A stretch of DNA of 64,000 bases. It comes from Candidatus Omnitrophota bacterium (lineage in GTDB: Bacteria; Omnitrophota; Omnitrophia; Omnitrophales; Aquincolibacteriaceae). A program made the translations under genes and the position numbers. The notes beneath the pieces were generated by a model. It was not told the origin of the DNA. It saw nothing but the letters and a program-made list of their open reading frames with translations, and ran no database searches. The stretch lies in contig DAOPYQ010000003.1 in the NCBI GenBank assembly GCA_035352955.1, positions 12,901 to 76,900 on the forward strand. Direction: 5' to 3'. Shown here one piece after another: positions 2,276 to 59,284 of this stretch. Positions within the stretch are counted from its first letter, which is position 1. Each line of letters begins with the position of its first letter.

Positions 2276-3901
2276 CTATTGCCTACTGTTTGCGGCTCTC
2301 TTCAGAATATAAAATCCGTCCTGCTCAAAGGAAACCGCGTAACCGGATGCCCGAAGTTCGTCAAGAGCCGCCTCCGGAGATCCTTTTAAAAGCCCTCGAT
2401 CAATCGCCACGAGATCGGTATGGCGAGCCTTCCAGGAGCCACCTTCCTTCGGATGATCATTTTCAAATATATGAAGCTCCTTGCGGTTCGCCGCATGAGG
2501 AGCATAGAACTCATGAGTCCGGAGCGACGCCTCCGCAGGAAGGCTCCGCAGCTTTTCCCGGACCATAACAGTATGAGGCGTAATCGCAATCCAGTTACGG
2601 CGGATCGGATACGCTTCAGAAACTCCGCTTAGAAAAACAGAGGTCAAAAGGATCAAATAAGCCCAATAGCGACGAAACTTTCGGATCTTAGCCATCGCGG
2701 CGACGGACGCGATGAACACGAAAGGCGTCAGGGTCGCCGTATACTGAAAATAAAGAGAACGCGTCGTGATGCTGCGCGACAAGATATTCTGTGCCAAAGT
2801 CGGCAACGTCAACATCAACTGCAACGGCGCAAAAAAACTGGTAAACGCAAGCGGTCCGTACACCTTCGCAACATACGACAAGGTCGTTACGTTAATAACA
2901 TGCCTGCTCAAAGGCTTCCACCCCAGGCAAAGCCATTCGGTAAAATTTCCGGAAAGATAAAAATAAGGGGCCCCGGACAACACGGGAATGATCCAATGGA
3001 CAACGGCGTAGAAATAGACCGCAGAAAACACGATCCAGAAGGCCCCAAAACCGAGGGATCTGTCCTTTTTCAGACACGCATAAACCCCGAAAGCAAAAGC
3101 AACGGTCGCAATATTCTCTTTGGCTGCCAGTGCAAGAGCCAAGAAAACGGACGAAAGGAGAGTTCTTTTCTCTTCCAGAAAGCAAAACGCCCAGAACAGA
3201 AGCGGCATGGCAAGAACTTCCGGATGAAAGTCAAAACGGACAGAGTTCCTTACGGGAGAGTAAAGCGCAAAGCAAATACAGCACAGGATCGCCCAAGCGG
3301 GCGATTGTCCGGTCTTCCGGACGAATCTCGCCAGCGGAAACACACAGGATGCCGCCGCCAAAGCCTGCATCCCAAGCAAAAACTCGGGATGCGGCCAGAC
3401 CCTGTATGGGATCGCAAATACCGCAAGGATCGGCGCAAAATGATCTCCCAAAAGGCTGATACCTCCCTTGATGCTCGAATAGAACCAGTCCCCCTGAGTT
3501 GTATTCCAGATGGCCTGTGTGAAAATCGCCATGTCGAAACCGGCATCCATGGCCTCAAGGCGGAGGCAACTGGAGACCGCCCACCACAACCCGAAACCGG
3601 AGAACAAACCTAAACTCCAGGCAACAGAACGGGAGCGCATGCTTTCGACCATACGGCCCCAAACACACCGCGCATTGATGAAAGCGTCCCGCCTGGCCCA
3701 TTCAAACAGCAAAAGTCCTAAGACCGCAGCTCCGGACGCCGTAAAATTTAAAGATCGCTTATAAATTTTAGGAATTGCATCAAACACTGCCGACCATATC
3801 CCCGGACAAAAAGTAGCGACCCCGAAATAAAACCCGAGCAAAAAAAGCAACAGTGCCTCCCCCATCCGAAAAGCTGTTATCTTAAGCAATCCGTTGCGCA
3901 T
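2276..3901 (-). CDS. Polytopic membrane protein, possible GT-C-type glycosyltransferase (DUF2079-like)
   Basis: 541 aa with many predicted TM helices and an FHPE motif region. Lies in the context of GT-C/GT2 genes. Confidence 0.4.
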   Translation of the reverse strand: MRNGLLKITAFRMGEALLLFLLGFYFGVATFCPGIWSAVFDAIPKIYKRSLNFTASGAAVLGLLLFEWARRDAFINARCVWGRMVESMRSRSVAWSLGLFSGFGLWWAVSSCLRLEAMDAGFDMAIFTQAIWNTTQGDWFYSSIKGGISLLGDHFAPILAVFAIPYRVWPHPEFLLGMQALAAASCVFPLARFVRKTGQSPAWAILCCICFALYSPVRNSVRFDFHPEVLAMPLLFWAFCFLEEKRTLLSSVFLALALAAKENIATVAFAFGVYACLKKDRSLGFGAFWIVFSAVYFYAVVHWIIPVLSGAPYFYLSGNFTEWLCLGWKPLSRHVINVTTLSYVAKVYGPLAFTSFFAPLQLMLTLPTLAQNILSRSITTRSLYFQYTATLTPFVFIASVAAMAKIRKFRRYWAYLILLTSVFLSGVSEAYPIRRNWIAITPHTVMVREKLRSLPAEASLRTHEFYAPHAANRKELHIFENDHPKEGGSWKARHTDLVAIDRGLLKGSPEAALDELRASGYAVSFEQDGFYILKRAANSRQ

Positions 3902-3910
3902 AGATTTCCC

Positions 3911-5842
3911 CTATCTAACCGGAACCCTGAAAATAAAAAAAGTTTTTCCCACGCGAAATTCCGGAGGCCTGTTCTTAAACCAGGACTCCGAAGAACGCTG
4001 CTGCTCCACATAACATCGTATGCCCAGCGCATAATAACCGGGCCGTGGAGAAACAAAATCGTTCTTCTCCATCCTCATCCAAGGCATCCCGTAATAGTTA
4101 TAGACGTCCCCGTTTTCAGCCTCGGACGCGATTTTGATCATTGGAATTTTTTTCGCGATCACGAACTCGGCAAGACGTCCGTTGTCTTGTCCCCAGTTGA
4201 TATTGGAATCCGCGACAAACTTGGCTCCTTGCTCCGCGCCGCCAACAAATTCATTAAAAAATGCTAAATAATCCGGTGCCGCCGCAACCGTACGCGCCGC
4301 CGTCTCAACGATAAAGATAGCCAGTAAAACAAAAACACACCTTCGAAGAACAGTATGTTGTATTTGTTTTATCAGCGATCCAGCGTAGCCTGCAAGAAGG
4401 AACAGAAACGGATAAACAGGAAGGATATGGCGCAGTCCGATATGAATCTTGTTCGGGATAGCGGCACCCAAAAAGAATATGGCCGGCAGAAGAACCAGAG
4501 ATTTGACCAGAATTGATCGTTTGGAGTAGAGCAGAGCAATGGCTCCAATCACCGAAAGAATCAACGTCAAAAACGGGGTCTTTATCGCCATGAGAGCAGG
4601 AAAATAGCGCCAGTCGCATGTCACGAACGAGCCCTCCACGCAGGCTCCATGACCGCCCGCAGAGTGCGAGAGCACAATTCCGAGCGGCTTCATATAATTA
4701 CCAAACCCGATTAAGCGATAAAACTTATAAACGATATCCGTATAATCCAACACGATAAAAAGCGCCGCCAGCACAAATACCGTCAAAAAGCATTTCACCA
4801 AACGGACGCGGCTATCCTCTGACGGGAACCTTGCAAAAAACGCTGCTATTGTCAAAGCAATAAAGCTTCCAAACATCAGAAAAGCCGCCAGCGAAACGCT
4901 GTATTTCTTCTTCAGCTTCCATGAAAAAACAATACAAAGCAAGGCGCCGCCAAGCATAGTCGCCCGAAAAAAAATGCGCGCAACACTAGAACTGCGGATA
5001 AACGCAAGATCCCTCGCAAAAAGATAAACAGCGAACACACAAAACGGACCGAATAGAACCATCGCTTGTTTCTCTCCGATCGCGTTAGCAACAAGAAAAA
5101 GGGAAATGCCCAGGATCCATTTCTCAAACTGCAGAGGTAATGGCGGGAGCGAAGAATTTTTCACAGTGTCAAAATAATAGATTACAAATAGACAGGCAAT
5201 GACCGGAATCAGAACCAGACTGCTTATCTTGGACACAAAAGCAGCACCGCATGCCACACCAACCCAAACAGCGCGCCTACCGGACGGTTCGTCAAAAAAT
5301 CGCTTGCTCGCGTAAATAGCAAAAAAATAGAAAACCGCAAGCCCCATATCAGTCGTGTACAAGCTTCCATGGGCGATCATGTTGGGGTCAAAGGAAAACA
5401 AAGCGAGCGAAAGAAAAGCGCCCCAGGCACCAAAAAGCTCCCCGCAAAGGCAAAAAATACCAACGGCAAGTAGCAACGTTAATAAAATGATAGGGACCCG
5501 CTCCCAAAAAAGGATCTGCCGAGGCGTGTTCCCCACTTTGTAAAGGAACATGGCCCCGGTCCGCGAAATATCGACACTGTTGGTCCCCAAAAGGCGCACA
5601 TAGTTTTGGATGGGAAAAGCGGGTTGCAATAAGAGGAGCGGTAAGGCTCCTAATTGAATTAGAAAGGGCGGATGTTCTCCAAGAAATTCGTAATTGTTGT
5701 AACGGACCATTGGATATGCGCTTCCATTGTAGTATGTCTCATCCACGGTCTGGCTGGTTTCATAGGCGGCATAAATTGCTTGGATCCCGATGAAAATCAA
5801 AAGCGCGATAACGCAAAGCCAATACTTGAATCCTGCCTGCAT
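3911..5842 (-). CDS. GT-C fold membrane glycosyltransferase, family 39/83-like (ArnT/PMT-like)
   Basis: 643 aa polytopic. First loop 'VDETYYNGSAYPMVRY' resembles the DE-x-x-Y catalytic motif of ArnT/PMT. Confidence 0.6.
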   Translation of the reverse strand: MQAGFKYWLCVIALLIFIGIQAIYAAYETSQTVDETYYNGSAYPMVRYNNYEFLGEHPPFLIQLGALPLLLLQPAFPIQNYVRLLGTNSVDISRTGAMFLYKVGNTPRQILFWERVPIILLTLLLAVGIFCLCGELFGAWGAFLSLALFSFDPNMIAHGSLYTTDMGLAVFYFFAIYASKRFFDEPSGRRAVWVGVACGAAFVSKISSLVLIPVIACLFVIYYFDTVKNSSLPPLPLQFEKWILGISLFLVANAIGEKQAMVLFGPFCVFAVYLFARDLAFIRSSSVARIFFRATMLGGALLCIVFSWKLKKKYSVSLAAFLMFGSFIALTIAAFFARFPSEDSRVRLVKCFLTVFVLAALFIVLDYTDIVYKFYRLIGFGNYMKPLGIVLSHSAGGHGACVEGSFVTCDWRYFPALMAIKTPFLTLILSVIGAIALLYSKRSILVKSLVLLPAIFFLGAAIPNKIHIGLRHILPVYPFLFLLAGYAGSLIKQIQHTVLRRCVFVLLAIFIVETAARTVAAAPDYLAFFNEFVGGAEQGAKFVADSNINWGQDNGRLAEFVIAKKIPMIKIASEAENGDVYNYYGMPWMRMEKNDFVSPRPGYYALGIRCYVEQQRSSESWFKNRPPEFRVGKTFFIFRVPVR

Positions 5843-5843
5843 G

Positions 5844-7322
5844 CTACACGCTCTTGATGGTTGTGCGACGGGAAGGAAAAGCTTTCATCCACCATGATGT
5901 CAACAAACTTGGCCATTTCAAATGATAAAAAAAATACGCCGTAGTGATTAGCATCAAAGGTTCCAGCGGAAAACGATATTTTCTGTCTGGATAGATCACC
6001 ATATGCTCCGCGAACCAAAAAAGAAAACACAGCCCGAGAACACAAAGACAATTCCTTGTGATTGGCGATAAGGCTTTATGTTGTCTCACGAGAAGCATCA
6101 TGGCAATTAAAGAAGAGAAAAAAACGATATAGTAAAAAGCAAAGGCGTACTCTTCCAAAGATTTTCTAAGCTTGTCAGGCAGGGGGCGCCGCGAATCAAA
6201 AGAACCGGGATAATACTCATACCAAAGGGCCCAGATCCCGCTCTTCCGGTTGAAGCACATGAAATCGAGTAATCGAGCCGTCCCAAGTTGAAGGAACGAT
6301 AAAGGATGTTCCCGTATCCATTTTTTCATTTCACGTCCGGCGATCTGATGCATCTTCCCTTCGTTCCCCGATCGAAATGCAGCGTCCAATTCCGCGGAAT
6401 AACCCGGTTCCCCCTTTAGCGGAATGTGGCCGCCGCCCTCGGGGCCTGCGGTCGAATTCATTTGCGGATAAATATAATACGCGGTCGCCGTATAAAGTAC
6501 CGGCGTCTTCCAAACCTTGTAATTGCGGACGAGCCAAGGAAGATTGATGAGTTGCATGACGAGCGCCACGAGCAACAGTTTTCCAAGAACTTCCCGAAGA
6601 GGGCGTTTTAAAAGCCAGAAAGTGAAGCCCACGACAAATGGCATGAAGATGGTGTGTGTCCGTATCATGGTCGCATATCCAAAGATGAGACCAAGCCACA
6701 GCCAATCCAAACAGATCTTTCTCCCCTTCAAGATGCTGCATAGCATCCAGAGCCCCCCGTAAAAAAAAGGAAGGAATAAATGTTCATCCGTGATCAATTT
6801 AATGCTGTAAACGGACATGGGATAAATGGCGAACAAGAAACCGGAGATCAAAGCAATATTTTCATTGAAGATCATGCAGGCGATCTGAAAAAGAAAATAA
6901 AACGTAATTCCATACAGAATGAGGTTCAAAGTCCAGACCACTCCCAAATGCACGCCAAACAGTTTATAAAATAAGGCGAGAAACATCGGGTAACCGATGG
7001 GCCTCCGTCCGGAGGGCAGGCCATCGGGCCCATGAAACCATGTGCCATTCTGGGCTAATTCGATCGCTTGAACATTGATCCAATCATTTTCGAGCATGTG
7101 CCCGGCGTTCCAATGGCTCATGGGAGTGTGTGCGGAATAATGGAGCCATCCGATCCGCAGGGACAGCCCCAGGATAAAGATGAGCAGGAAAGCGGCCCAT
7201 TTTGAGATGGTGAAGCGGCTCTTGGGCAATAATCGGAACAGCAGGATCCCGCCCATGACGATTAGAAAAAATGTCGTGAATTTACCGAACTTCACATACT
7301 GATAGAGGTAGTGGAGGATCAT
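5844..7322 (-). CDS. GT-C fold membrane glycosyltransferase, family 39-like
   Basis: 492 aa polytopic. 'ENDWINVQAIELAQNGTWF' resembles the ArnT/PMT DE-loop. Adjacent to another GT-C gene. Confidence 0.55.
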   Translation of the reverse strand: MILHYLYQYVKFGKFTTFFLIVMGGILLFRLLPKSRFTISKWAAFLLIFILGLSLRIGWLHYSAHTPMSHWNAGHMLENDWINVQAIELAQNGTWFHGPDGLPSGRRPIGYPMFLALFYKLFGVHLGVVWTLNLILYGITFYFLFQIACMIFNENIALISGFLFAIYPMSVYSIKLITDEHLFLPFFYGGLWMLCSILKGRKICLDWLWLGLIFGYATMIRTHTIFMPFVVGFTFWLLKRPLREVLGKLLLVALVMQLINLPWLVRNYKVWKTPVLYTATAYYIYPQMNSTAGPEGGGHIPLKGEPGYSAELDAAFRSGNEGKMHQIAGREMKKWIREHPLSFLQLGTARLLDFMCFNRKSGIWALWYEYYPGSFDSRRPLPDKLRKSLEEYAFAFYYIVFFSSLIAMMLLVRQHKALSPITRNCLCVLGLCFLFWFAEHMVIYPDRKYRFPLEPLMLITTAYFFYHLKWPSLLTSWWMKAFPSRRTTIKSV

Positions 7323-7948
7323 GCGGCCCCTTTGGGTGTGGCGGTGATCAAAAGATATTTTGCCAGTCCGTTACGCGAATAAAAAAAGCGGGTCTTTGTA
7401 ATCTTTAGAGCGGTTTCGCAAAGCACCAGATAGGCCTCTTGGGTGCGGACGAACGGCCCTTGATCCATTTTGCATAATAGATTGTTGATCCAGTGATATC
7501 GCGAATAAACCGGCTCGGAAAAAACGATCTTGTTTTTCACAATGCGACTAAGTTCCGCCACCGCGGTTTTTGCGTCGTTGTCCGTGAGATGGTGAAGCAA
7601 ACCATAACCTAAGGCGGTGTCGAACGATTTTGACGCGAATGGCGTTCGAGTGATGCCGCTTGTCAAGAAGCGCCGATGAGGAGTCTCCCCGATCTTGCTT
7701 TTTGCCCACTGGATCCGCGTATCATCGATATCGATCCCCGTGTAATCACAGTGACTGGCGTGCCTTACAAAAACTCCGAACCCACAACCGGCGTCCAGGA
7801 GCTTTTCATCGGCTTTGAGCTCAAGTGCCTCCGAGATGGGACGGACCCGCAAACCCCAAAGGAACGCTTTACGGAGACCTTCATAAATCGCATGCGAATC
7901 CATGAAGGCCGCGATCATTTTTGAACCTGCAGGACCGTGTTCCAGCAA
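7319..7948 (-). CDS. Class I SAM-dependent methyltransferase
   Basis: 'LDAGCGFGVF' motif I; 'YGLLHHL' motif. Confidence 0.75.
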   Translation of the reverse strand: MLEHGPAGSKMIAAFMDSHAIYEGLRKAFLWGLRVRPISEALELKADEKLLDAGCGFGVFVRHASHCDYTGIDIDDTRIQWAKSKIGETPHRRFLTSGITRTPFASKSFDTALGYGLLHHLTDNDAKTAVAELSRIVKNKIVFSEPVYSRYHWINNLLCKMDQGPFVRTQEAYLVLCETALKITKTRFFYSRNGLAKYLLITATPKGAA

Positions 7949-8733
7949 AGGTAATTGGAAAAAGGAACATATTTAAGACAAAGATCATCCATACGCTGCA
8001 GCTTTTGGAAAAGACCGCGATATTCTTCGCCTGCCTCGATGACCTTTTTCCAGTACCGCACCTTGGAGGGATGCCACCGGCGAATAAAAAAGAAGTGGAG
8101 AAAGATCCCTAAGCTAAAAAGCCAGAATTCCCGGTGGCGGGACGAGAAAAAAAAGGAGGCGAAATCGCTGAGTTGTTTGAAGCTCAAGGGGCACTCATCG
8201 GCAGAGCGGACTTTGGACGCCATGGCGCGATAGATGTGAATGACGGGGTTGTAGGGCAAGGGTTCAATGAAAAAAGCTTTCCCGCCCGGCTTTAAAACAC
8301 GCCGGACTTCCCGGGCGGTCGCCGGTAGATCCACATGATGGAGTACGCCGTTTCCAAAAACAAAATCAAAGTGACCATCGGGATACGGGAGTGCGCTCGA
8401 AGACGCTACGGAAAATTGGGGGGCGACGCCGTAGTTAAGGGCTAATTGTTTGGCCAGAACCAATAACTCTTCGGCAACGTCACAACCTTCCACCTGTGCC
8501 CCCTGAAGAGCAAAATAGACCGCGGCCTCGCCTGCCCCGCAGCCGAGATCCAGGATCTTTTTTCCCTGGATCGGTCCCATGCTTTCGAGCGCAAAGCGGT
8601 TTTCCACGGCGGTAGGCGATTCGAAGGATTCCCGCACTAAGAGCGAAGCGATATCCATCCCTTGGGCCAACTGATTATGGAATTCCTTTTCACGCTGGAC
8701 CACGGAGTCGTTCGAGGGGGGCATCGGGGTCAA
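7915..8733 (-). CDS. Class I SAM-dependent methyltransferase
   Basis: 'ILDLGCGAGEAAVYFA' motif I; 'FDFVFGNGVLHHV'. Confidence 0.75.
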   Translation of the reverse strand: MTPMPPSNDSVVQREKEFHNQLAQGMDIASLLVRESFESPTAVENRFALESMGPIQGKKILDLGCGAGEAAVYFALQGAQVEGCDVAEELLVLAKQLALNYGVAPQFSVASSSALPYPDGHFDFVFGNGVLHHVDLPATAREVRRVLKPGGKAFFIEPLPYNPVIHIYRAMASKVRSADECPLSFKQLSDFASFFFSSRHREFWLFSLGIFLHFFFIRRWHPSKVRYWKKVIEAGEEYRGLFQKLQRMDDLCLKYVPFSNYLCWNTVLQVQK

Positions 8734-9716
8734 AAACCTTCTTTTTTCTGTATCAGATAGAGAGGCCGGTTCCGCGATTCGTCATAATTTCTGGCGAGAT
8801 AGCTTCCCAAGATGCCGAGTGTGATGAGTTGCACGCTGCCCAAGAAAAGAATGGCGACCATGAGCGATGCCCAGCCGGGAACCGCAATCTTGAGAACGAG
8901 CGAGACGTAAAGCGTGTGGATAAGTTCGATGGTGCAATAGACGAACGTTAAAAGGCCGATCCAAGTGGCGACATGCATCGGGAAAAAGGAAAAATGCGTG
9001 ATGCCGCTCCATGCGAACTGGAGCATTTTTAAAAGAGAAAACTTGGTTTTTCCGGCGAAGCGGGCTTCGCGCGTGATCAAAATTCCCGTTTGGCGGAAGC
9101 CCAGCCAGCTGATGAGCCCCCGAAGAAAAGGCCGTTTTTCGGTCATTTGTTTCAATACATCGGCCACGGGCCTTGAGATCAGACGAAAATCGCCCGTATC
9201 AAGGGGCATATCGATATGAGTCAGACGTTTCATCAGCCGGTAATACAGCGATGCTGTAGTTTTCTTAAAAAAGCTTTCCCCTTTTCTTTCGGCGCGAACG
9301 GCATACACGACATCGAATCCTTCTTTCCATTTGGCGATCATGTCGGGGATCGCTTCTGGAGGATCTTGAAGGTCGGCATCGATCGTGATCACAGCATCGC
9401 CGGTGGCATGGTCGATCCCCGCTTTAATGGCCGGCTGATGACCGAAATTTCTCGAAAACACAAGGACTTTGACGCGGGAGTCTTCACGATGAAGCCCGTT
9501 AAGGATCTCAGGGGAGCGGTCATGAGACCCATCGTCGACAAAGATCCACTCAACCTCTTCTTCGAGTGTCTTGGCGACCGCGAGTGTTTTACGGAAAAAT
9601 TCCTCGAGGCATTCCTCTTCATTGTAAACCGGAGCGACAATGCTGATCTTCATAGAGTCGTATTTTGCAACAGGAGACGATAGGATTCGAGGTTTTTTTT
9701 TGCGACCTGATGCCAT
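8730..9716 (-). CDS. GT2 polyprenol-phosphate sugar synthase (ArnC/GtrB/DPM1-like) with C-terminal TM helices
   Basis: 'ISIVAPVYNEEE', 'VDDGSHD' and 'IDADLQDPP' motifs, followed by two C-terminal TM segments. Probable start is MKISIV at 9653 (ATGA overlap with the upstream GT4 stop). Confidence 0.8.
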   Translation of the reverse strand: MASGRKKKPRILSSPVAKYDSMKISIVAPVYNEEECLEEFFRKTLAVAKTLEEEVEWIFVDDGSHDRSPEILNGLHREDSRVKVLVFSRNFGHQPAIKAGIDHATGDAVITIDADLQDPPEAIPDMIAKWKEGFDVVYAVRAERKGESFFKKTTASLYYRLMKRLTHIDMPLDTGDFRLISRPVADVLKQMTEKRPFLRGLISWLGFRQTGILITREARFAGKTKFSLLKMLQFAWSGITHFSFFPMHVATWIGLLTFVYCTIELIHTLYVSLVLKIAVPGWASLMVAILFLGSVQLITLGILGSYLARNYDESRNRPLYLIQKKEGF

Positions 9717-10717
9717 AAAAAGTTTTCGCGAATATGCGTTCGTAAGGAGGTAGAGCGTGGCCGGCTGAAAGCCGCTTCCACCTTGCGGCGGATATCATGG
9801 GGATCCGCTGGGTTCACATAGTCTGCGTAATCCGAAAAATATTCCTGAGTGGCGCCTTCACGAGTGATCACGACTTTTGCGCCGGCAAGTCCCGCTTCGA
9901 GCGCGGCTAGCCCTGGTGTCTCGAGCCAACTGGCGAGAAGAAACACGTTGCAAGCCGCATAAGCGGAACGAAGAAGCTCTGAATCGTGAGGAAGTCCACC
10001 CACGAAATGGATATTCGGTCCGGCCGCATCACGGCATGCCTTGTAATAATCCGGATAGGCCTTAACCGGATCTCCGATCAACACGAGATCGAGCGCGGAG
10101 CCATTGAGGGCCCGAACCATGCCCAACTGATTCTTTCGCGGTTCAATGCGCCCCACGCAGAGGATAAAATCCTTAAAGCCGAACTTGTTAATGAATAGAT
10201 CAGGCTTCGCGCTTTCAAAGATCGGATCTACGGCATTGGGGATCACCGTGATCTTGTCTTTGGGGATCCCAAAATAACGTTGAAGCTGGGCCGCTTCACT
10301 CCTCGAGTTCGGTAATAACAGATCCGCGAGTTCCATCATGTGTTTTCGGGATGACGGGATCATTGGGAAAAGCGACTTTGCGGCGTGGCGAAGGATGGCG
10401 CCGCTGCGTTTGGCGATGGACCCATGAATGTGGATCGCTGATTGCAAATTGTACCAACAGATCGTTGAAAGCACATTCTTGATCCCGGCGCGCTTTGCCG
10501 CCTGCATCATGGGAAGCGCATCCTTGACGGAACCGAAAGTGTGAAGAATATCGAAGTTTTCAAGCTGATCATGCCACGGATCGAATAATTTGATGCGGGC
10601 CCCTTCTTTTTCGAGGAATTCTTTTGTTTTAAGCAGGAGGATCTCCCCGCCCCCCGGAGATTGGAAGGCTGTCGGGTAAACATAAAACGCGACTGAGATA
10701 TCCTCGGCCTTAGTCAT
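9650..10717 (-). CDS. GT4 (GT-B fold) glycosyltransferase
   Basis: C-terminal 'ETPGLAALEAGLAGAKVVITREGATQEYF' (E-x7-E motif region). Confidence 0.75.
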   Translation of the reverse strand: MTKAEDISVAFYVYPTAFQSPGGGEILLLKTKEFLEKEGARIKLFDPWHDQLENFDILHTFGSVKDALPMMQAAKRAGIKNVLSTICWYNLQSAIHIHGSIAKRSGAILRHAAKSLFPMIPSSRKHMMELADLLLPNSRSEAAQLQRYFGIPKDKITVIPNAVDPIFESAKPDLFINKFGFKDFILCVGRIEPRKNQLGMVRALNGSALDLVLIGDPVKAYPDYYKACRDAAGPNIHFVGGLPHDSELLRSAYAACNVFLLASWLETPGLAALEAGLAGAKVVITREGATQEYFSDYADYVNPADPHDIRRKVEAAFSRPRSTSLRTHIRENFLWHQVAKKNLESYRLLLQNTTL

Positions 10718-11885: not shown

Positions 11886-11891
11886 CTTTGA

Positions 11892-13067: not shown

Positions 13068-13068
13068 G

Positions 13069-30531: not shown

Positions 30532-30532
30532 A

Positions 30533-32300: not shown

Positions 32301-32311
32301 AAAAATCCCTC

Positions 32312-32962: not shown

Positions 32963-32979
32963 AATCCTCCTCGGGATCT

Positions 32980-34020: not shown

Positions 34021-34061
34021 TTTGACCTCCTGGTTAATATGCGAACGGACTGCTTTTTCAG

Positions 34062-49794: not shown

Positions 49795-49879
49795 GAATCA
49801 GGTCGAAGAATCTCGAGAAAAGATCCCTCTCTGTCCGGCAGGCAGACTTCGCAGCGCTCAGGATGACGCGCCACAACCT

Positions 49880-50614
49880 TTACACACTCGCATCCCGGAA
49901 CTTCCCCAAGGGGAAATGGCTCATCATCTCGTTGCCGACGAACTGGCAGGCTTCCTTGCCGCCCATCCTCCAATGCGTCGGACACATGGAAAGCACCTCC
50001 ACGAACGAGAATCCCTTTCCTTCGATCTGATTTAAAAAAGCCTTCCGGAGCGCCTGCTTCGTCCGCTCGACATGCGGGGCGTCGTGGACGGCGACCCGTT
50101 CGATATAAACCGGACGCGTCAATGTCGCCAGCATCTCGCAGATCTTGATCGGCGCGCCGGTCGTTCCCGCCATGCGCCCGTCCGGCGTCGTGACCGTTTT
50201 CTGCCCGATCAGCGTCGTCGGAGCCATCTGCCCGCCGGTCATGCCGTAAACGGCATTGTTGATGAAGATCATGGTCAGATTTTCGCCACGGTTCGCGCAA
50301 TGGATCGTTTCCGCCATGCCGATCGACAATAGGTCGCCGTCGCCGCCGTAGCCGAACACGATCTTGTCCGGCTGGACACGTTTGATCCCGGTCGCCACCG
50401 CGGGGATCCTTCCGTGAGGGCATTCGATAATGTCACAATTAAAATAATTATAGAGAAGGACCGCACACCCCACCGGGGCGGTCCCGATGGTCTTCTCACG
50501 GATCCCGAGATCATCGATCACCTGCGCCACCAAACGCTGGACGATCGCATGACCGCAGACCGGACAATAATGCATCCGAACGTTCCTGAGCGCCTTCTCA
50601 CCGAGATTTAACAT
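49880..50614 (-). CDS. 2-oxoacid:ferredoxin oxidoreductase beta subunit (TPP-binding)
   Basis: 'CPVCGH' and 'GYGGDGD' TPP motif. Confidence 0.85.
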   Translation of the reverse strand: MLNLGEKALRNVRMHYCPVCGHAIVQRLVAQVIDDLGIREKTIGTAPVGCAVLLYNYFNCDIIECPHGRIPAVATGIKRVQPDKIVFGYGGDGDLLSIGMAETIHCANRGENLTMIFINNAVYGMTGGQMAPTTLIGQKTVTTPDGRMAGTTGAPIKICEMLATLTRPVYIERVAVHDAPHVERTKQALRKAFLNQIEGKGFSFVEVLSMCPTHWRMGGKEACQFVGNEMMSHFPLGKFRDASV

Positions 50615-51699
50615 GACGCGATCTCCTTGATCCGCGCAAGCAGTTCCGCAGGCTTGGGATACCAGCCTCCGCCGCGGCCCATGAACTCAATCTTCGGGTC
50701 CACGGAGGTCGCGGGAATTCTCGCAAGCCGCACATCCTCGATCATCTGGCCCTGGCTCATTTCGACCACCAGAAGCTTCCGGCAATGCGCCGTAATCTTC
50801 CGGAGTTCGACGGCCGGGAACGGCCAAAGCGTGATCGGGCGGAAAAGTCCGACCTTCACACCAGCCTCCCGCGCGCGTTTCACGGCCCAATGAGCGATCC
50901 TCGCCGACGTCCCGTAAGCGATCACGGCGATCTCCGCATCCTCCCCGAAGCGGGTCTCGGAAAGCTGCGATTCCGCGGTGATCTTTTCATATTTCGCCGT
51001 AAGTTCCAGGTTCTTTTCTTCAAGCGCGTCTTTTTGCTGAAGATAAAGCGTCCGTATGACGTTGGGCTTCCGGCCCGCACACCCGGTGAGCGCCCACTCT
51101 TTCGGCATCGCCTTGGATTTCACAGGCTCTTTCAGCTCAATCGACTCCGCCATCTGCCCCAAAATTCCGTCCGCCAAAAGCATTACCGGATTGCGGTACC
51201 GGTCCCCCAGTTCGAACGCAAGGCATGTAAGATCATACATTTCCTGCACCGACCACGGCGCCAACACAATGAGACGGTAATCCCCGTGCCCGCCCCCGCG
51301 GGTCGCCTGAAAATAATCCGATTGAGAGCCCTGGATATTGCCGAGGCCCGGACCCCCGCGCATGACATTGGCAATGAGACAGGGGATCTGCGCCGCCGCG
51401 ATATAGGAGATCGCCTCCTGCATCAGGCTGATGCCGGGGCTCGACGACGAGGTCATAGCACGAACGCCCGTGGCCGCCGCACCGAAGATCATATTGATCG
51501 CGGCAAGCTCGGACTCGGCCTGGACAAAGACGCCGCCAGCTTCGGGAAGCCGTTTGGCAAGATATTCGCTGACCTCATTCTGGGGCGTGATCGGATAGCC
51601 CGCGTAAAAACGGCATCCGGCCCGCACCACGGCTTCCGCCATGGCCACGTTCCCCATCATAAGCACTTTTTCTTTTTCAACAGACGTCTTTGTTTTCAT
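50608..51699 (-). CDS. 2-oxoacid:ferredoxin oxidoreductase alpha subunit
   Basis: 'GNVAMAEAVVRAGCRFYAGYPITPQNEV' signature. Confidence 0.85.
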   Translation of the reverse strand: MKTKTSVEKEKVLMMGNVAMAEAVVRAGCRFYAGYPITPQNEVSEYLAKRLPEAGGVFVQAESELAAINMIFGAAATGVRAMTSSSSPGISLMQEAISYIAAAQIPCLIANVMRGGPGLGNIQGSQSDYFQATRGGGHGDYRLIVLAPWSVQEMYDLTCLAFELGDRYRNPVMLLADGILGQMAESIELKEPVKSKAMPKEWALTGCAGRKPNVIRTLYLQQKDALEEKNLELTAKYEKITAESQLSETRFGEDAEIAVIAYGTSARIAHWAVKRAREAGVKVGLFRPITLWPFPAVELRKITAHCRKLLVVEMSQGQMIEDVRLARIPATSVDPKIEFMGRGGGWYPKPAELLARIKEIASC

Positions 51700-54345: not shown

Positions 54346-55293
54346 TCAGACCCCGAGCATTTCCCTAAAATACGCGGCCGTACGCTTCAGACCTTCTTCA
54401 AGCGAGACCGAAGGTTCCCAGGAAAGATACTTCCTGGCTTTGGCAATGTCTGGCTGGCGGACCTTCGGGTCGTCCACCGGAAGATCTTTATGCTCGATCC
54501 CGCTCCGGCTGCCCGTGGCCTTGATCACCCTTTTCGCAAGATCAAGCATCGAGATCTCTTCCGGATTCCCAACGTTCACCGGCTCGTTGATACCGGACAA
54601 GAGCAGTTTTTCGATCCCGTTCACCATGTCGTCAATATAACAAAGGCTGCGCGTCTGCCGGCCGTCCCCAAAAACCGTCAAAGACTTTCCCGTCAGGGCC
54701 TGGGAGAAAAACGCCGGGATCGCGCGACCGTCGCGGAGCCGCATCCGGGGCCCGTACGTATTAAAAATACGGATGATCCGGGTGTCCACCTGATGCGTCC
54801 TGTAATAGGCCATGGTCATGGCCTCCGCGAAACGCTTGGCCTCGTCATACACGCCCCGGGGGCCGATGGGGTTCACATTCCCCCAGTAGCTTTCCGGCTG
54901 CGGATGGATCAGGGGATCCCCGTAAACTTCGGAAGTGGACGCAAGTAAAAACACCGCTTTTTTCTCTTTGGCCAGCCCGAGGGCATTATGCGTTCCGAGG
55001 GCGCCAACTTTGAGCGTCTGGATGGGAAATTCGAGATAATCAAGCGGACTGGCCGGTGAAGCAAAATGAAGGATATAGTGGACCGGCCCCGGAATATCGA
55101 TGTACTGGCAAACATTATGCCGGACCAGCTCGAAAGCAGGATTTTTCTCAAGAGGCGCGATGTTCTTTTCGTTCCCGGTAAGGAAATTATCAACCGCGAT
55201 CACCCGGCACCCGCGCTCAAGAAAGCGCTCACAAAGATGGGACCCGAGGAAACCGCCGCCCCCGGTAACAAGACAAACCTTTTTTTCGGACAT
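54346..55293 (-). CDS. UDP-glucuronate decarboxylase (UDP-xylose synthase, SDR family)
   Basis: '[15 protein letters not shown]', 'YDEAKR', '[19 protein letters not shown]' motifs. Confidence 0.8.
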
Positions 55294-56273
55294 CAGGGCT
55301 CATTCTCCTTCGCGGCCGCCTCGGCCGTCTGTTTCGACTCGAGCGCAAGCTTTTCTTCTTTCCACTCCGAAAGAAATTCGCGCGCGGCTTCTTCCCAGGA
55401 CCGGAGTTGAAGGCCCAAAACGGATCCGCTCTTTTCAAGCGACAGGACAGAATTAAGTGGCCGGGGCGCCGGCCTCGTCAACTGGGTGCTCGGAATGTCC
55501 TCGACCTTCACCTGATCGAGACCCGACTCTTTTACAATAAACCTAGCAAAATCCGCCCAGTTCACCGTCCCCGAGTTCCCCAAATGGAAGATCTGCCGGT
55601 CGCGGGCGAACACCACTTCTTTTTTCGCGAGAAGTAGCTGGCGCATCGCCTGGGCCACATCCCGGGTATACGTCGGCCGGCCGGTCTGGTCATTCACAAC
55701 GGTCATTTTTTTTACCTCCGCGGCCTGGCACAGGATCGCTTTCGGAAAACAGCGCCCGTAGACACCGAACAGCCACGTGATACGGAAGATCAGCGCGCGG
55801 GAGGCCTTTTCCATCAAATACCGCTCGGCGCGGAGCTTCGTCTCACCGTAAAAATTCACGGGGTCCGGAACGTCCGTTTCAAGATACTCCCCCTTTTTCG
55901 AGCCCCGGAACACATAGTCCGTGCTGTAAAAGATGACCGGGGCATCGATCTCATGGGAAGCGTCGACGATATTCTTGGTGGCCTCAAAATTATGCTCCAG
56001 GGCCTCCTCGTGATGCTCCTCACAATAATCCACGTCGGTCAGCGCCGCCGTGTGAATCACCACCGCGGGCCGGTGGTCCAGGATCGCGTCGCGCGTCTTC
56101 CGCGCCTGGGTGAGGTCGCAAAGGTCATGGGGTACCGTCAGATGGGTCACGCGGCGTTTCTCAAGCCCTACGATCTCGAAGTCCCCCTTCAGGGCCTTCG
56201 CAAGATCGGTCCCGAGCATTCCGCCGACCCCCGTGATAAGGATCTTGGGACGGTCCTGGGTCGTCATGGTCAT
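55293..56273 (-). CDS. rfbD: dTDP-4-dehydrorhamnose reductase
   Basis: '[12 protein letters not shown]', 'STDYVFRG', 'YGETKL' motifs, with a ~70-aa charged C-terminal extension. Confidence 0.8.
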
Positions 56274-57373
56274 TTCACCGTGTATTTGTCTTTTTTAAGA
56301 CGCTGCCACCAACCGGTGTTCTCCCGATACCACTTCACCGTCGCAGCCAATCCCCTGGTAAAATCCCAACGTGTCTTGAACCCGAGCTTCTTGAGCTTGT
56401 TGTAATTGAGCGCGTAACGGAGGTCATGTCCTAAACGGTCCGGCACATAACGGATCATTTCCTTGCCTTTCCCGAAATATTTCAGGATCGCCTTCGTAAG
56501 TTCGAGGTTGCTCATTTCATGATGCGCCCCGACGTTATAGATCTCTCCCGCCTTCCCTTTTTCGAGGACCAACAGGACCGCCCGACAGGCGTCTTCGACA
56601 AAGATCCAGTCCCGGCGGTTCTTCCCGTTCCCGTAAAGCGGCACGGTCTTCCCCGCGAGAAGGTTCGTCACAAAAAGCGGGATGACCTTTTCGGGAAACT
56701 GATAGGGCCCGTAATTGTTCGTGCACCGGACGATCATGGCCGGATGACCGAAGGTCTCCTGGAAGGACCGGACCAGCAGGTCCGCGCCGGTTTTAGAAGC
56801 AGCATACGGGCTGTTCGGCAAAAGCCTCGCCTGTTCGTCCACAAACCCTCTTTTGATCGACCCGTAAACTTCATCCGTCGACATGTGCACATAACGTTTG
56901 ATGCCGCAGGCAAGCGACGCCTCGAGCATCGATGAGGTCCCGAGGATATTGGTCGTCAGGAACTCATCCGCGCTCTCGATCGAACGGTCGACGTGGGTTT
57001 CCGCCGCAAAATGCACCACCGCCGCAGCTCTTTTCATAAGGGAAAGGACAAGTTTCTTGTCCGTAATGTCCCCTTTGACGAACTCGTAACGGGGGGACTT
57101 CGCAAAATCCCGAAGATTCTCGGGATTCCCAGAATAGCTGAGTTTGTCGAGATTGATCACACCCCATCCTGGGCGGTTCTTGAGAAAATAGCGGATAAAA
57201 TTAGACCCGATGAACCCGCAACCGCCGGTCACTAAAAGTCTTTTCATGTGTGTTTGTACCTCTCCTGCCGGGCCACCAGCATATTCGCGCGATGAAGCGA
57301 CTCGAACGTTCCGGCGTCGGTCCAGTAGCCCTTCAGCACGTCGTATTCCAACGCGCCGCGCTTCAGGTACCAA
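56270..57373 (-). CDS. rfbB: dTDP-glucose 4,6-dehydratase
   Basis: 'LLVTGGCGFIGSNF', 'STDEVYG', 'YAASK' motifs. True start is likely MKRLL at 57244 (ATGA overlap with rfbA). Confidence 0.9.
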   Translation of the reverse strand: MVPEARRVGIRRAEGLLDRRRNVRVASSREYAGGPAGEVQTHMKRLLVTGGCGFIGSNFIRYFLKNRPGWGVINLDKLSYSGNPENLRDFAKSPRYEFVKGDITDKKLVLSLMKRAAAVVHFAAETHVDRSIESADEFLTTNILGTSSMLEASLACGIKRYVHMSTDEVYGSIKRGFVDEQARLLPNSPYAASKTGADLLVRSFQETFGHPAMIVRCTNNYGPYQFPEKVIPLFVTNLLAGKTVPLYGNGKNRRDWIFVEDACRAVLLVLEKGKAGEIYNVGAHHEMSNLELTKAILKYFGKGKEMIRYVPDRLGHDLRYALNYNKLKKLGFKTRWDFTRGLAATVKWYRENTGWWQRLKKDKYTVK

Positions 57374-57975
57374 TTGTTCACATCCGTGATCTCGAGTTCG
57401 CCGCGGCGCGAGGGCTTCAGCGTCTTGATATAATCAAAAACGTCGGCATCGTAAAGATAGATCCCCACGACGGCAAAACAACTTTTCGGCTTTTTGGGTT
57501 TCTCGACGATCTCCGTGATCTTCGGGCCCTTCAAGGTCGCCACCCCGAACCGCTCCGGGTCCGGAACCTTCTTGAGCAGCAACCGAGCGCCGGCCCCCTG
57601 AGCTTCAAACGCCCGGACCGAAGCACTGATGTCGTCCTGGATGATGTTGTCGCCGAGAATCACCACAATTTTATCCCGTGCCGCAAAATGCTCGGCAAGC
57701 CCCAGCGCCTGGGCGATCCCGCCTTCGCCCTCCTGGTAGGTGTAGTTGATATGTTTCAGGCCGAACTGCTTGCCGTTGCCGAGAAGTTTCAGGAAATCCC
57801 CCGAGGAATTTCCGCCCGTCACGACCAGGATGTCGCGGATGCCCGCCTTCACGAGGGTCTCGATCGGATAGTAGATCATGGGCTTGTGATAGACCGGCAG
57901 GAGATGCTTGTTGGTGACCTTGGTCAACGGATGCAGCCGACTGCCAAGGCCGCCAGCGAGAATAACGCCTTTCAT
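57244..57975 (-). CDS. rfbA: Glucose-1-phosphate thymidylyltransferase (short-form RmlA-like nucleotidyltransferase)
   Basis: 'MKGVILAGGLGSRLHPLT' signature. Confidence 0.8.
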   Translation of the reverse strand: MKGVILAGGLGSRLHPLTKVTNKHLLPVYHKPMIYYPIETLVKAGIRDILVVTGGNSSGDFLKLLGNGKQFGLKHINYTYQEGEGGIAQALGLAEHFAARDKIVVILGDNIIQDDISASVRAFEAQGAGARLLLKKVPDPERFGVATLKGPKITEIVEKPKKPKSCFAVVGIYLYDADVFDYIKTLKPSRRGELEITDVNNWYLKRGALEYDVLKGYWTDAGTFESLHRANMLVARQERYKHT

Positions 57976-57985
57976 GGTTCCTCCT

Positions 57986-59284
57986 TTATGCGGACGGACG
58001 GCCGATACTGATGTACTGAAAACCGTTCTTCTTCATATCCACCGGCTGGAACATGTTCCGGCCGTCAAAAAAGAACCGGCCTTTCATCAGGCGGCGAAAC
58101 CGCGGCCAATCCAGGTTCAGGAATTCGCTCCATTCCGTAAGAACCGCCACCGCATCCGCTCCCCGGACCGCTTCGTACGGATCCACCGTATAATGGACAC
58201 CCTTAAAGATGTCGCGGCATTTAACGACGGCCTGCGGGTCGTAGGCCTGGATACGAGCCCCGTCCTTCTGCAACATCTGAAGGATGGGAACCGACGGCGC
58301 CGAACGCATGTCGTCCGTATCCGGCTTGAACGCAAGCCCCAGAACCCCGATCGTCTTCCCCTTCAGGGATCTCAGGGAATTCCGGATCTTTTCGACAAAA
58401 TATTTCGCCTGCAGGTCATTGATCTTCAGAACGTCCGCCAAAAGTTCAAAACGGACCCCCAGCTGCTCGGAAATATGCAGGAACGCGCTCAGATCTTTCG
58501 GAAAACACGAGCCACCGAAACCGATCCCGGCCTTGAGGAACTGCGGGCCGATACGGGGATCGAGGCCCATCCCGAGCGAAACCTTATCCACATCCGCGCC
58601 TACCGCGTCACAGACGCGCGACAACGCGTTCGCGAACGAGATCTTGGCGGCAAGGAACGAGTTGGAGGCATGTTTGATGAGTTCGGCGCTCTTGATGTCC
58701 GTCACGACGATCGGCGCCTTCAGCGGGCTGTAGATCTTGCGCAGAATCTTTTCGGCACGGGCGCTCGCGACCCCGATCACGATCCGGTCCGGCGACGAGA
58801 AGTCATGGATCGCCGACCCCTCCCGCAGGAACTCCGGGTTCGACGCCACGTCAAACTCGACACCTTTTCGAACGTTCCGCTTGATCGTGTTCCGGACCCA
58901 TTCCCCCGTTTCGACGGGGACCGTGCTCTTCTCAACGATCAGGCAGTATTTTTTCAGCTGCGTCGCAATCTGTTTGGCGACCTTTTCGACAAAGCTCAGA
59001 TCCGCGCCGCCGTCAGGCCGGGGAGGCGTATGGACGCAGATGAAAAGAACTTCGCAACGGTTGACGATCTTCGCGATCTCGGTCGTGAACTTGAGCCGCT
59101 TCGCCCCGACGTTCTCGAGGACCATTTCCATCAGCCCCGGTTCATAGAACGGGATCTTACCGTTCTTGAGCGTGCGGACCTTCTCCGCGTCATGGTCCAC
59201 GCAAGTCACCGTGTGCCCAAGATGCGCGAAACACGCGCCCGTTACAAGCCCGACATAACCCGCCCCGACGATCCCTATTTTCAT
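57986..59284 (-). CDS. ugd: UDP-glucose 6-dehydrogenase
   Basis: 'KIGIVGAGYVG', 'GFGGSCFPKD' catalytic Cys motif. Confidence 0.9.
   Translation of the reverse strand: MKIGIVGAGYVGLVTGACFAHLGHTVTCVDHDAEKVRTLKNGKIPFYEPGLMEMVLENVGAKRLKFTTEIAKIVNRCEVLFICVHTPPRPDGGADLSFVEKVAKQIATQLKKYCLIVEKSTVPVETGEWVRNTIKRNVRKGVEFDVASNPEFLREGSAIHDFSSPDRIVIGVASARAEKILRKIYSPLKAPIVVTDIKSAELIKHASNSFLAAKISFANALSRVCDAVGADVDKVSLGMGLDPRIGPQFLKAGIGFGGSCFPKDLSAFLHISEQLGVRFELLADVLKINDLQAKYFVEKIRNSLRSLKGKTIGVLGLAFKPDTDDMRSAPSVPILQMLQKDGARIQAYDPQAVVKCRDIFKGVHYTVDPYEAVRGADAVAVLTEWSEFLNLDWPRFRRLMKGRFFFDGRNMFQPVDMKKNGFQYISIGRPSA

Follow-up and report, generated by a model that had tools for sequence, protein, structure and literature searches.

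In the ArnC/ArnT system, Ugd supplies UDP-glucuronic acid (UDP-GlcA), a short-chain dehydrogenase/reductase (SDR) acts on UDP-GlcA, ArnC loads bactoprenyl phosphate, and ArnT transfers 4-amino-4-deoxy-L-arabinose (L-Ara4N) to lipopolysaccharide (LPS) in the periplasm. The RgtE/RgtA-D system of Rhizobium, which handles galacturonic acid (GalA), has four GT-C paralogues and one GT2 (PMC7663294), and in L. lactis a single unlinked flippase, CflA, shows that one such protein may serve several GT-A/GT-C pairs (PMC8035078). Mycobacterial and corynebacterial lipomannan (LM), lipoarabinomannan (LAM), and arabinan are assembled with Ppm1 together with PimE and MptA-D, and with decaprenylphosphoryl-arabinose (DPA) together with EmbA-C and AftA-D (PMC3485146, PMC12041525), while the three-component GT136 pentofuranose systems of Citrobacter O antigens employ a flippase of the MOP superfamily, to which Wzx also belongs (Kelly et al. 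2024, PMC11127046). Against this background, we analyzed a 64,000-nucleotide stretch of a Candidatus Omnitrophota genome (contig DAOPYQ010000003.1, positions 12,901 to 76,900; hereafter the window), in which positions 2276-59284 hold a glycan locus with seven GT-C membrane proteins (GTC1 to GTC7) and seven GT2 glycosyltransferases (GT2a to GT2g). The Omnitrophota, a widespread phylum of ultra-small bacteria, are uncultivated and may be predatory. Neither glycosylation nor LPS comes up anywhere in the phylum's main genomic survey (PMC10066038), and our searches of the literature on Omnitrophota glycosyltransferases and LPS, and on UDP-xylose with undecaprenyl or ArnT, found no earlier description of such a system.

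Our analysis suggests that the locus encodes several lipid-carrier modules by which an envelope glycan that is conserved and lipid-linked, most likely LPS, would be decorated or built; we give this reading a probability of roughly 55%. Three layers would act together (Table 1). Nucleotide sugars would be supplied by Ugd, the UDP-glucuronate decarboxylase UXS, RmlA, RmlB, RmlD, Gmd, WecB, and a pseudaminic-acid (Pse) pathway. A cytoplasmic Wzx-type branch, comprising a GT4, GT2c, a LIC12162-family transferase, and many methyl-modifying enzymes, would produce a strain-variable, Pse-containing oligosaccharide. In the third layer, six GT2 enzymes of the GtrB/ArnC/DPMS type would attach single sugars to polyprenyl phosphate on the cytoplasmic side of the membrane; the lipid-linked sugars would then be flipped, either by a PF03706- or GtrA-type protein encoded elsewhere or by the Wzx-family protein of the locus, and the seven GT-Cs would transfer them on the periplasmic face. 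The lipid-carrier/GT-C mechanism itself appears quite probable.

The seven GT-C proteins claimed by an earlier sequence-only reading of this DNA were recovered, six through Pfam models and GTC5 through its GT-C fold and its YfhO-positive homologues. When 53 window open reading frames (ORFs) and a later-found HTH_17 ORF were scanned with Pfam, and key ORFs with NCBIfam, six of the seven passed the gathering threshold for PMT, PMT_2, or DUF2079, GTC5 being the exception. A hydropathy scan placed 7-12 transmembrane (TM) segments in six of the seven and only three in GTC1 at the stringent threshold; besides Wzx, these seven are the only polytopic proteins that the TM scan detected in the window. 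They are deeply divergent, the closest pair sharing 25% identity, and are therefore neither recent duplicates nor an assembly artefact; judged by these identities, they appear to be old paralogues.

GTC5 matched no Pfam or NCBIfam model even at E 0.1, the YfhO profile included, and PDB sequence searches returned no match for either GTC5 or GTC7, so that structure prediction was needed for both. The model of GTC5 (pLDDT 86.8, pTM 0.87) is a helical bundle for which Foldseek against the PDB returned AftD, STT3, EmbA/B, AftA, DPY19, and PglB, with AftA and AftD as the nearest structural neighbors. Of its 169 homologues, mostly from Omnitrophota, 35 were aligned; eight of these match YfhO (PF09586, best E 1.7e-11) and three match PTPS_related. 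Because of the GT-C fold of the model and the YfhO matches of the relatives, GTC5 is best taken as a predicted GT-C enzyme and a distant YfhO relative rather than a demonstrable member of that family. The model of GTC7 (pLDDT 88.9), a protein with 539 homologues, is likewise a helical bundle, and its top 34 Foldseek matches are all GT-C enzymes, including ArnT, Pmt4, ALG9/12, STT3, AftA/B, and PimE.

Acidic residues that follow the first TM segment recur among these proteins. Asp53 of GTC5, just after TM1, is invariant in 35 sequences, and GTC7 carries an H-A-D50-E51-P motif after TM1, with D50-E51 kept in at least 90% of 36 sequences. Similarly placed are D49-E50 of GTC6 and D33-E34 of GTC2, the latter read from its own sequence. 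D130 of GTC4 is conserved in 34 sequences and D123 of GTC1 in a small alignment; GTC3 is less clear, as D179-E180 is conserved in four sequences only. Family membership, together with adjacency or fusion to DPM1-type GT2 enzymes, leads us to infer that the GT-Cs would use a polyprenyl-phosphate-linked donor on the extracytoplasmic face. An STT3/PglB-type oligosaccharyltransferase (OST) was also considered, such enzymes heading the Foldseek list of GTC7, and was rejected: the WWDxG motif is missing, and ArnT, ALG, and PMT enzymes score similarly. Indeed, the motifs WW[DE]xG and WxD[YWF]G are absent from all 54 window proteins tested.

All seven GT2 genes are real and exceed the Pfam Glycos_transf_2 cutoff, and none classifies as a processive polysaccharide synthase. 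The assignment of all seven to the polyprenol-phosphate-sugar synthases, on the other hand, holds for six, whose best matches in PDB sequence searches and NCBIfam are GtrB, ArnC, DPMS, AglJ, or PpgS, and whose similarity to GtrB, ArnC, or DPMS extends through the entire catalytic domain. GT2c has no TM segment, matches chondroitin/heparosan synthases and SpsA in the PDB over its N-terminal half only, and matches no lipid-carrier synthase; by these matches it is an ordinary Leloir GT2. Among the other six, GT2a has a C-terminal TM segment at residues 285-303 and an NCBIfam ArnC score of 192 bits (cutoff 529). The AglJ match of GT2b is below the cutoff of 325 bits and is accompanied by a dolichyl-P-hexose transferase match of 86 bits; its top PDB match is DPMS, weak at 34 bits, as is the sole PDB match of GT2d (DPMS, 33 bits). 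ArnC is the top NCBIfam match of GT2g. The four short GT2 enzymes (239-270 aa) are without a C-terminal TM anchor, like the anchor-less DPM1-type enzymes. The opposite orientation of GT2e is kept in most related loci, and the minus-strand ORF that overlaps it has no family match, while GT2f is linked to the methyltransferase MT6 in many loci.

The proposed pairing of GT-Cs with GT2 enzymes stood in part. In the order GTC6-GT2d-GTC5, the genes overlap by 4 and 8 bp and GT2d is translationally coupled on both sides, and UXS is separated from GT2g by 1 bp and GT2g from GTC7 by 58 bp. Direct coupling, which had been claimed for four GT-C/GT2 genes, applies to the overlapping genes; GT2g and GTC7 are neighbors. 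Nor is the pairing one to one: GT2b and GT2c adjoin no GT-C, and the left block consists of a single GtrB-type enzyme, GT2a, followed by two methyltransferases and then three GT-Cs. Independent support for functional coupling comes from a natural fusion protein (P0226, 863 aa), in which a GT2g-like domain (60% identity) is joined to a full-length GTC7-like GT-C (41% identity).

A candidate flippase for the lipid-linked sugars is found in relatives. A protein with the MprF flippase domain PF03706, which is frequently fused to GT-A domains, sits between the GT2 gene and the GTC7 orthologue in one locus (L072, 952-1893) and adjoins the YfhO-like gene in another contig (that of P0126); with this protein beside GT2 and GT-C, these relatives would hold the full synthase–flippase–GT-C triad. 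The Wzx of the window is an alternative candidate, and Wzx/MOP-type flippases are also used in such systems (PMC11127046). Taken together, the class matches of the GT-Cs and GT2 enzymes, the P0226 fusion, and the PF03706 gene of L072 support the earlier prediction that lipid-linked monosaccharides would be transferred in the periplasm by multiple enzymes.

The large glycan locus on nearly a single strand is real and tightly packed. Minus-strand genes run almost unbroken from 2276 to 63989 in the ORF listing, GT2e being the sole plus-strand gene; no intergenic gap exceeds 300 bp, and within 2276-38076 the genes overlap or are at most 143 bp apart, the frameshift in WbuX excepted. To place the locus among its relatives, we collected 64 related loci, one genome per species, and annotated them by phmmer with the window proteins; synteny counts refer to the 50 Omnitrophota-type loci, with those having enough flank as denominators. 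The gene order recurs in dozens of Omnitrophota genomes, beginning with (GAF-GGDEF, GGDEF)–LptD–Ugd–[Rml genes]–UXS–GT2g–GTC7–[2-oxoacid:ferredoxin oxidoreductase]–GT2e (opposite strand) and continuing with [GT2d]–GTC5–GTC4–MT6–GT2f–HTH_17–nonulosonic-acid genes–Wzx. Among the partners of the YfhO-like gene, GTC7 is conserved most widely, with a homologue upstream of that gene in 23 of 31 loci; 28 of 31 have a DPM1-type GT2 and 10 of 17 have UXS, and nonulosonic-acid genes lie downstream of the YfhO-like gene in 10 of 22. GTC4 is likewise conserved beside the YfhO-like gene, and the order LptD-Ugd-...-GT2-PMT is also seen in L006, L031, L049, L071, and the P0126 contig. The core GT-Cs GTC7, GTC5, and GTC4 and their GT2 enzymes are orthologous and syntenic, with 40-60% identity across the phylum. 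Since relatives hold two more weakly PMT_2-like polytopic families, 3-5 GT-Cs within 20 kb are normal for the phylum. The density of GT-Cs, which the sequence-only reading had called unusual for a bacterial locus, is therefore not peculiar to this genome but conserved across Omnitrophota loci. In true Planctomycetota (L062-L068), only remote YfhO-like matches were found, without synteny.

The left-hand GT-Cs also belong to this picture. The variable nonulosonic-acid block stands between them and GTC7-GTC5-GTC4 in the window, and in five deeper lineages (L046, L048, L051, L054, and L056) homologues of the left-hand GT-Cs and of GT2a lie directly against GTC7-GTC5-GTC4. Because both GT-C groups are contiguous there, the arrangement speaks for a single system across the whole span. 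In L014, L019, and L034, the GT-C block includes a GTC1 homologue; homologues of GTC2 adjoin GTC7/GTC5 in L048, L051, and L053, and in L046, L054, and L056 the gene directly upstream of a GTC7-like gene is a GTC3 homologue (345-497 bits). GTC6 has clear orthologues in few loci only (L011 and L016).

For one module, a donor sugar can be proposed. In many other loci, too, UXS lies upstream of GT2g, and the most economical reading is that an Ugd-UXS-GT2g-GTC7 module would make and use polyprenyl-phosphate-xylose. The odds that xylose is the sugar of GT2g, an assignment made from adjacency, seem about even. An Arn-type pathway for Ara4N was considered, as Ugd, an SDR, an ArnC-like GT2, and a GT-C occur together, and was rejected because the SDR is a UXS, with only ~60 bits to ArnA, and ArnA-N, ArnB, and ArnD are missing. 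Elsewhere in the sugar supply, RmlD and RmlB pass their cutoffs with 242 and 429 bits; the 3,5-epimerase RmlC was not found in the window, and the dTDP-sugar may therefore not be L-rhamnose.

The sequence-only reading had seen no evident acceptor; the conserved linkage to lptD, ugd, and a Wzx-type cluster offers a hint of one. An LPS-like, lipid-anchored acceptor is favored because the core GT-Cs are orthologously conserved, unlike serotype converters of the Gtr type, because lptD and ugd accompany them in at least six lineages, and because they always stand beside a Wzx-type glycan cluster. We tentatively propose LPS, as lipid A-core and/or its Pse-containing chain, and regard this particular choice as somewhat short of an even chance. 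A search of the unlabelled ORFs of 51 related loci for a conserved nonenzymatic acceptor gene found none; what recurs there is further membrane proteins of PMT_2-like type, an SGNH/GDSL hydrolase, a methyltransferase resembling TylF, and genes of the AbiE type. The SGNH/GDSL hydrolase-like protein (~373 aa, one TM segment, anchored) is present in L004, L005, L007, and 12 further loci, where its gene is followed closely by a PMT_2 gene and then by the YfhO-like gene; it has no counterpart in the window. In L071, a CDP-alcohol phosphatidyltransferase gene (20040-20864) follows the GTC4-like gene, which suggests a phospho-alcohol substituent on the same glycoconjugate.

Several observations weigh against modules that act on an LPS-like glycan with the sugars proposed here. 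WaaL, Wzy, an initiating phosphoglycosyltransferase, and lipid A (lpx) genes were undetected in the 64-kb window, so that the link to LPS comes down to the synteny of LptD and Ugd. There is also no GtrA, ArnE/F, or PF03706 flippase in the window, nor intergenic room for a small ORF. The NCBIfam equivalog cutoffs for ArnC, PgfS, AglJ, and PpgS are reached by no GT2, which leaves each of them without assignment to one particular known enzyme. The top Foldseek matches of GTC7 are OST and ALG enzymes, with ArnT slightly weaker, and the fold is blind to whether the acceptor is a lipid, a glycan, or a protein. In L024, L026, and L049, Gmd and an SDR lie between UXS and GT2g, implying that GT2g could use a GDP-6-deoxyhexose instead. 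More generally, adjacency is the footing on which all the putative sugars and acceptors stand.

A more far-reaching alternative, which we consider unlikely, is that the GT-Cs act sequentially, as in mycobacteria, to polymerize or build a conserved lipoglycan or LPS core from polyprenyl-phosphate-monosaccharides. The conserved lipoglycan or LPS core of Omnitrophota would then be built largely in the periplasm by 5-7 GT-Cs, fed by donors that include a previously undescribed polyprenyl-phosphate-xylose and lipid-linked sugars modified by B12-binding radical S-adenosylmethionine (SAM) enzymes. Such an assembly line would explain why 3-5 orthologous GT-Cs stay contiguous throughout the phylum, unlike the strain-variable Gtr-type decorations, and would suit L006, where five GT-Cs in a row are accompanied by two GT2 enzymes only, suggesting donor sharing. 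The closeness of the GTC5 model to AftA and AftD and the lack of detectable Wzy and WaaL in the window point the same way. However, the similarity to the Aft enzymes is at the superfamily level, with 9-12% identity, no primer or anchor synthase (e.g., PimA/B-like) is seen in the window, and LptD and the Wzx-type pathway argue that a conventional LPS also exists. If true, the assembly line would parallel mycobacterial LM/LAM/arabinan assembly in a didermic bacterium.

Protein O-glycosylation, by which PMT/PMT_2-type GT-Cs would modify Ser/Thr-rich surface proteins such as pilins or giant adhesin-like proteins, is quite unlikely. Giant adhesin-like proteins are typical of Omnitrophota, and analogous systems are the actinobacterial Pmt, the streptococcal PgfS/PgfM, and the Pseudomonas TfpW. 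The Pfam PMT matches, a loop-1 DE motif as in PMTs, and the glycosylation of Ser/Thr-rich regions by streptococcal GT-C systems (PMC12041528) count in its favor. PgfS is moreover the best NCBIfam model for GT2a, but its 249 bits are far under the cutoff of 500 and weaker than the 303 bits to GtrB. The GT-Cs are without MIR or TPR domains, the conserved neighbors are LptD, Ugd, and a Wzx-type glycan cluster, and the window contains no candidate acceptor protein, pilin, or Sec/pilus gene, nor does one recur among the 64 related loci.

Gtr-like serotype conversion, in which accessory, horizontally acquired GT2/GT-C pairs would attach side-branch sugars to a variable, already polymerized O antigen, is improbable. 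It would account for the lower GC content left of ~46 kb (0.45-0.53, compared with 0.55-0.58 to the right), for the patchy distribution of GTC6 and GTC1 to GTC3 among relatives, and for the nonulosonic-acid block, whose gene content varies between relatives. The orthologous, syntenic core described above is nevertheless the opposite of the phage-borne gtr pattern, and no integrase, tRNA, or phage genes flank the locus. A mobile island, a possibility raised by the GC step, was rejected for the same lack of tRNA, integrase, and phage genes and because the core is vertically conserved. That independent glycan gene sets merely lie side by side by chance, which would make the GT-C density meaningless, is highly improbable: an oxidoreductase operon does interrupt the locus and the GT-Cs are mutually very divergent, but dozens of genomes share the gene set and its order, GTC2/GTC3 and GT2a homologues lie directly against GTC7-GTC5-GTC4 in L046, L048, and L051, and the left part of the locus is tightly packed. 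Several lipid-carrier modules acting on a conserved lipid-linked glycan, most likely LPS, thus remain our preferred reading.

Table 1. Features of the window by position (aa, amino acids; rSAM, radical SAM enzyme)
Feature	Position	Strand	Basis or remark
PIN/VapC-like toxin ORF	187-585		By sequence inspection; overlaps 97-aa putative antitoxin ORF
Putative antitoxin, 97 aa	582-875		Toxin/antitoxin pair is left boundary of glycan locus
GTC1, DUF2079-family, 541 aa	2276-3901	-	Pfam DUF2079 200 bits
GTC2, PMT_2, 643 aa, ~12 TM	3911-5842	-	Pfam PMT_2 48.8 bits, cutoff 26.1
GTC3, PMT_2, 492 aa	5844-7322	-	Pfam PMT_2 50.7 bits, cutoff 26.1
Two SAM methyltransferases	7319-7948, 7915-8733	-	Pfam Methyltransf_11/25; operonic with GT2a, GTC1-3
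GT2a, putative polyprenyl-phosphate-hexose synthase of GtrB/ArnC type, 328 aa	8730-9716	-	303 bits full-length to Synechocystis GtrB sll0501; ArnC 173 bits
GT4	9650-10717	-	
Cytoplasmic glycan-unit genes: the above GT4, WecB UDP-GlcNAc 2-epimerase, 391-aa protein, hexapeptide acetyltransferase, LegB-like SDR	9650-14609	-	
Methyltransferase	14753-15640	-	
B12-binding rSAM	15553-17004	-	Overlaps GT2b by 4 bp
GT2b, AglJ/DPMS-like, 326 aa, two C-terminal TM (243-285)	17001-17981	-	NCBIfam AglJ 228 bits
SAM methyltransferase, 342 aa	17989-19017	-	
GT2c, soluble, ordinary glycan GT2	18932-19891	-	NCBIfam TuaG, WcaA, EpsE
B12-binding rSAM	19888-21444	-	
Wzx-type flippase	21437-22924	-	
LIC12162-family transferase	22921-24822	-	
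B12-binding rSAM	24841-26229	-	
SPASM rSAM	26270-27268	-	
Pseudaminic-acid-type nonulosonic acid pathway	27261-38076	-	Pfam, NCBIfam
HTH_17 DNA-binding protein, 82 aa, excisionase/MerR-like	38113-38361	-	Pfam HTH_17 on identical gene in L001
GTC4, PMT_2 + PMT, 622 aa, ~12 TM	38521-40389	-	Pfam
GTC5, YfhO-like, 800 aa, C-terminal beta-sandwich domain	40528-42930	-	Predicted structure, relatives
GT2d, short DPM1/PpgS-like, 253 aa	42923-43684	-	NCBIfam PpgS, AglJ, dolichyl-P-hexose transferase
GTC6, PMT_2 + PMT, 542 aa	43681-45309	-	Pfam
GT2e, ArnC/GtrB/DPMS-like, 253 aa	45389-46150	+	PDB matches over residues 19-229
GT2f, putative DPMS-like polyprenyl-phosphate-hexose synthase, 270 aa	46220-47032	-	127.5 bits full-length to Pyrococcus DPMS 5mlz
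MT6 methyltransferase	47066-47965	-	
GDP-mannose 4,6-dehydratase (Gmd)	47962-49002	-	NCBIfam Gmd 386 bits, cutoff 415
2-Oxoacid:ferredoxin oxidoreductase, three subunits (POR_N/PFOR_II, TPP_enzyme_C, POR gamma)	49084-51699	-	Pfam
GTC7, 595 aa	51779-53566	-	Pfam PMT 30.6 bits, PMT_2 27.9 bits
GT2g, short DPMS/ArnC-like, 239 aa	53625-54344	-	PDB DPMS 70.9 bits, ArnC 66.6 bits
UDP-glucuronate decarboxylase (UDP-xylose synthase, UXS)	54346-55293	-	331 bits full-length to human UXS1 (4gll, 2b69)
RmlD, RmlB, RmlA	within 55293-57975	-	NCBIfam/Pfam scan; scores in text
Ugd, UDP-glucose 6-dehydrogenase	57986-59284	-	A few genes beyond UXS
LptD outer-membrane LPS insertase	59318-61900	-	Pfam LptD 56 bits; directly after Ugd
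Two diguanylate cyclases (GGDEF; GAF-GGDEF)	61897-63989		Upstream of lptD

The other gene numbers given by the sequence-only reading hold as well: besides the Wzx and the GT4, Pfam and NCBIfam recovered SAM methyltransferases to the number of six and radical SAM enzymes to the number of five, one of the latter being a SPASM enzyme and four B12-binding. In the left block, the two methyltransferase genes (7319-7948 and 7915-8733) overlap at their ends. WecB, at 431 bits, is above its NCBIfam cutoff. The 391-aa protein (11892-13067) has only subthreshold matches, to α/α-toroid glycoside hydrolases (GH76, GH127, and GH47). A radical SAM enzyme is paired with a DPM1-like GT2 in six more loci (L018, L021, L023, L024, L029, and L035), usually followed by a YfhO-like or PMT_2 GT-C, and the recurrence of this pairing hints at a radical-SAM-modified, perhaps C-methylated, lipid-linked sugar.

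A pseudaminic-acid, Wzx-type pathway, left unnamed by the sequence-only reading, takes up about one third of the span. Its genes encode PseI/NeuB, a PseG-PseH fusion, a HisF/HisH-like amidotransferase pair, WbuX, a Pse-associated methylase, a PseB-like dehydratase, a KedN5-like B12-binding radical SAM enzyme, a CMP-transferase as PseF candidate, and a PseC-like aminotransferase, so that candidates for all six Pse functions (PseB, PseC, PseH, PseG, PseI, and PseF) are present in the window. The Pse-associated methylase (296 bits against a cutoff of 112) and WbuX (236 bits) exceed their cutoffs, whereas PseG (122 against 154) and PseH (32 against 93) are both below, and a related nonulosonic acid is possible. 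WbuX (31147-32522) is split by a 1-bp indel relative to L002, a 99.8% identical contig from another metagenome, the window being identical to L001 at this site; the frameshift reflects either an assembly error or a genuine pseudogene.

Other neighbors complete the window. The 2-oxoacid:ferredoxin oxidoreductase, which is probably not part of the glycan machinery, lies between GTC7 and the remaining GT-C block, as it does in L004, L008, L013, L021, and L023. The HTH_17 gene marks the junction of the GT-C and nonulosonic-acid blocks, at the same site as in L004, L005, L008, L021, L024, L032, L037, and L046, and its product may regulate the downstream operon. The position of the GGDEF and GAF-GGDEF genes upstream of lptD is kept in L006 and the P0126 contig. 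At the left end, a 276-aa ORF (1360-2190) has no family match.

An lptD-linked, phylum-wide block with 3-7 GT-Cs provides a testable handle on the envelope of Omnitrophota. It yields concrete leads, namely the putative donors, of which UDP-xylose leading to lipid-phosphate-xylose is the best supported, a GT2::GT-C fusion for biochemistry, and an MprF-type flippase candidate. An 800-aa family now annotated as "hypothetical protein" can be annotated as a predicted GT-C glycosyltransferase, and the gene block can serve as a synteny marker for annotation. If the enzymes build rather than decorate the glycan, periplasmic GT-C assembly lines would extend beyond Mycobacteriales.

The known systems closest to the locus include GtrA/GtrB/GtrC of Shigella and Salmonella and CsbB/GtcA/YfhO, GtlA/GtlB, and CsdAB/CD/EF of Firmicutes (PMC8035078), in which a GtrB/CsbB-type GT2 stands beside a PMT_2/YfhO-type GT-C. 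As in these multicomponent transmembrane glycosylation systems, one genome has several pairs, which may share a flippase encoded at a distance (PMC8035078). The window differs in having seven GT-Cs in one locus of a didermic bacterium of the Planctomycetota-Verrucomicrobiota-Chlamydiota (PVC) group, in a core that is conserved phylum-wide rather than strain-variable, in the absence of GtrA, in a GTC5 too divergent for Pfam YfhO, and in the predominance of short, TM-less DPM1-like GT2 enzymes. With the Arn and Rgt systems it shares Ugd, an SDR for UDP-GlcA, an ArnC-like GT2, and ArnT/PMT_2-like GT-Cs, LPS being a putative acceptor here. Unlike in those systems, the SDR is of the UXS type (331 bits to UXS1 versus ~60 to ArnA), no formyltransferase or deformylase is encoded in the window, and the Arn-type aminotransferase is absent, the sole DegT aminotransferase belonging to the Pse block; the sugar would therefore be neutral xylose and not Ara4N or GalA. 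An lpxE/lpxF phosphatase was likewise not seen in the window.

The mycobacterial lipoglycan and arabinan assembly resembles the locus in its many GT-C paralogues and in polyprenyl-phosphate-monosaccharide donors made by DPM1-like GT2 enzymes, and AftA/AftD are the top neighbors of GTC5. The phylum and the envelope (LptD) are different, however, identity is 9-12%, and the window has no genes for a phosphatidylinositol anchor or for DPA (UbiA/DprE). Similar to the GT136 systems are the proposed extracytoplasmic addition of a pentose from a polyprenyl-phosphate donor and a GT-C with a C-terminal domain of carbohydrate-binding type; the GT136 donor derives from phosphoribosyl pyrophosphate via a UbiA-like synthase, whereas the window has no such synthase and a UDP-pentose with a GT2 is proposed instead. 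Like Pse/Wzx O-antigen clusters, the locus holds PseB/C/G-H/I/F-like genes, the Pse-associated methylase, the WbuX/HisH/HisF trio, and Wzx; unlike them, it has four B12-binding radical SAM enzymes interleaved and a WbuX frameshifted by 1 bp, and Wzy, WaaL, and an initiator are not found within the 64 kb. Each part is thus of a known kind, and no part is assignable to a specific characterized enzyme. New in comparison with these systems are the UXS-linked module, implying a lipid-phosphate-xylose donor, and the recurrent pairing of a B12-binding radical SAM enzyme with a DPM1-like GT2, and the number of modules in one locus and the phylum-wide conservation of their core appear undescribed.

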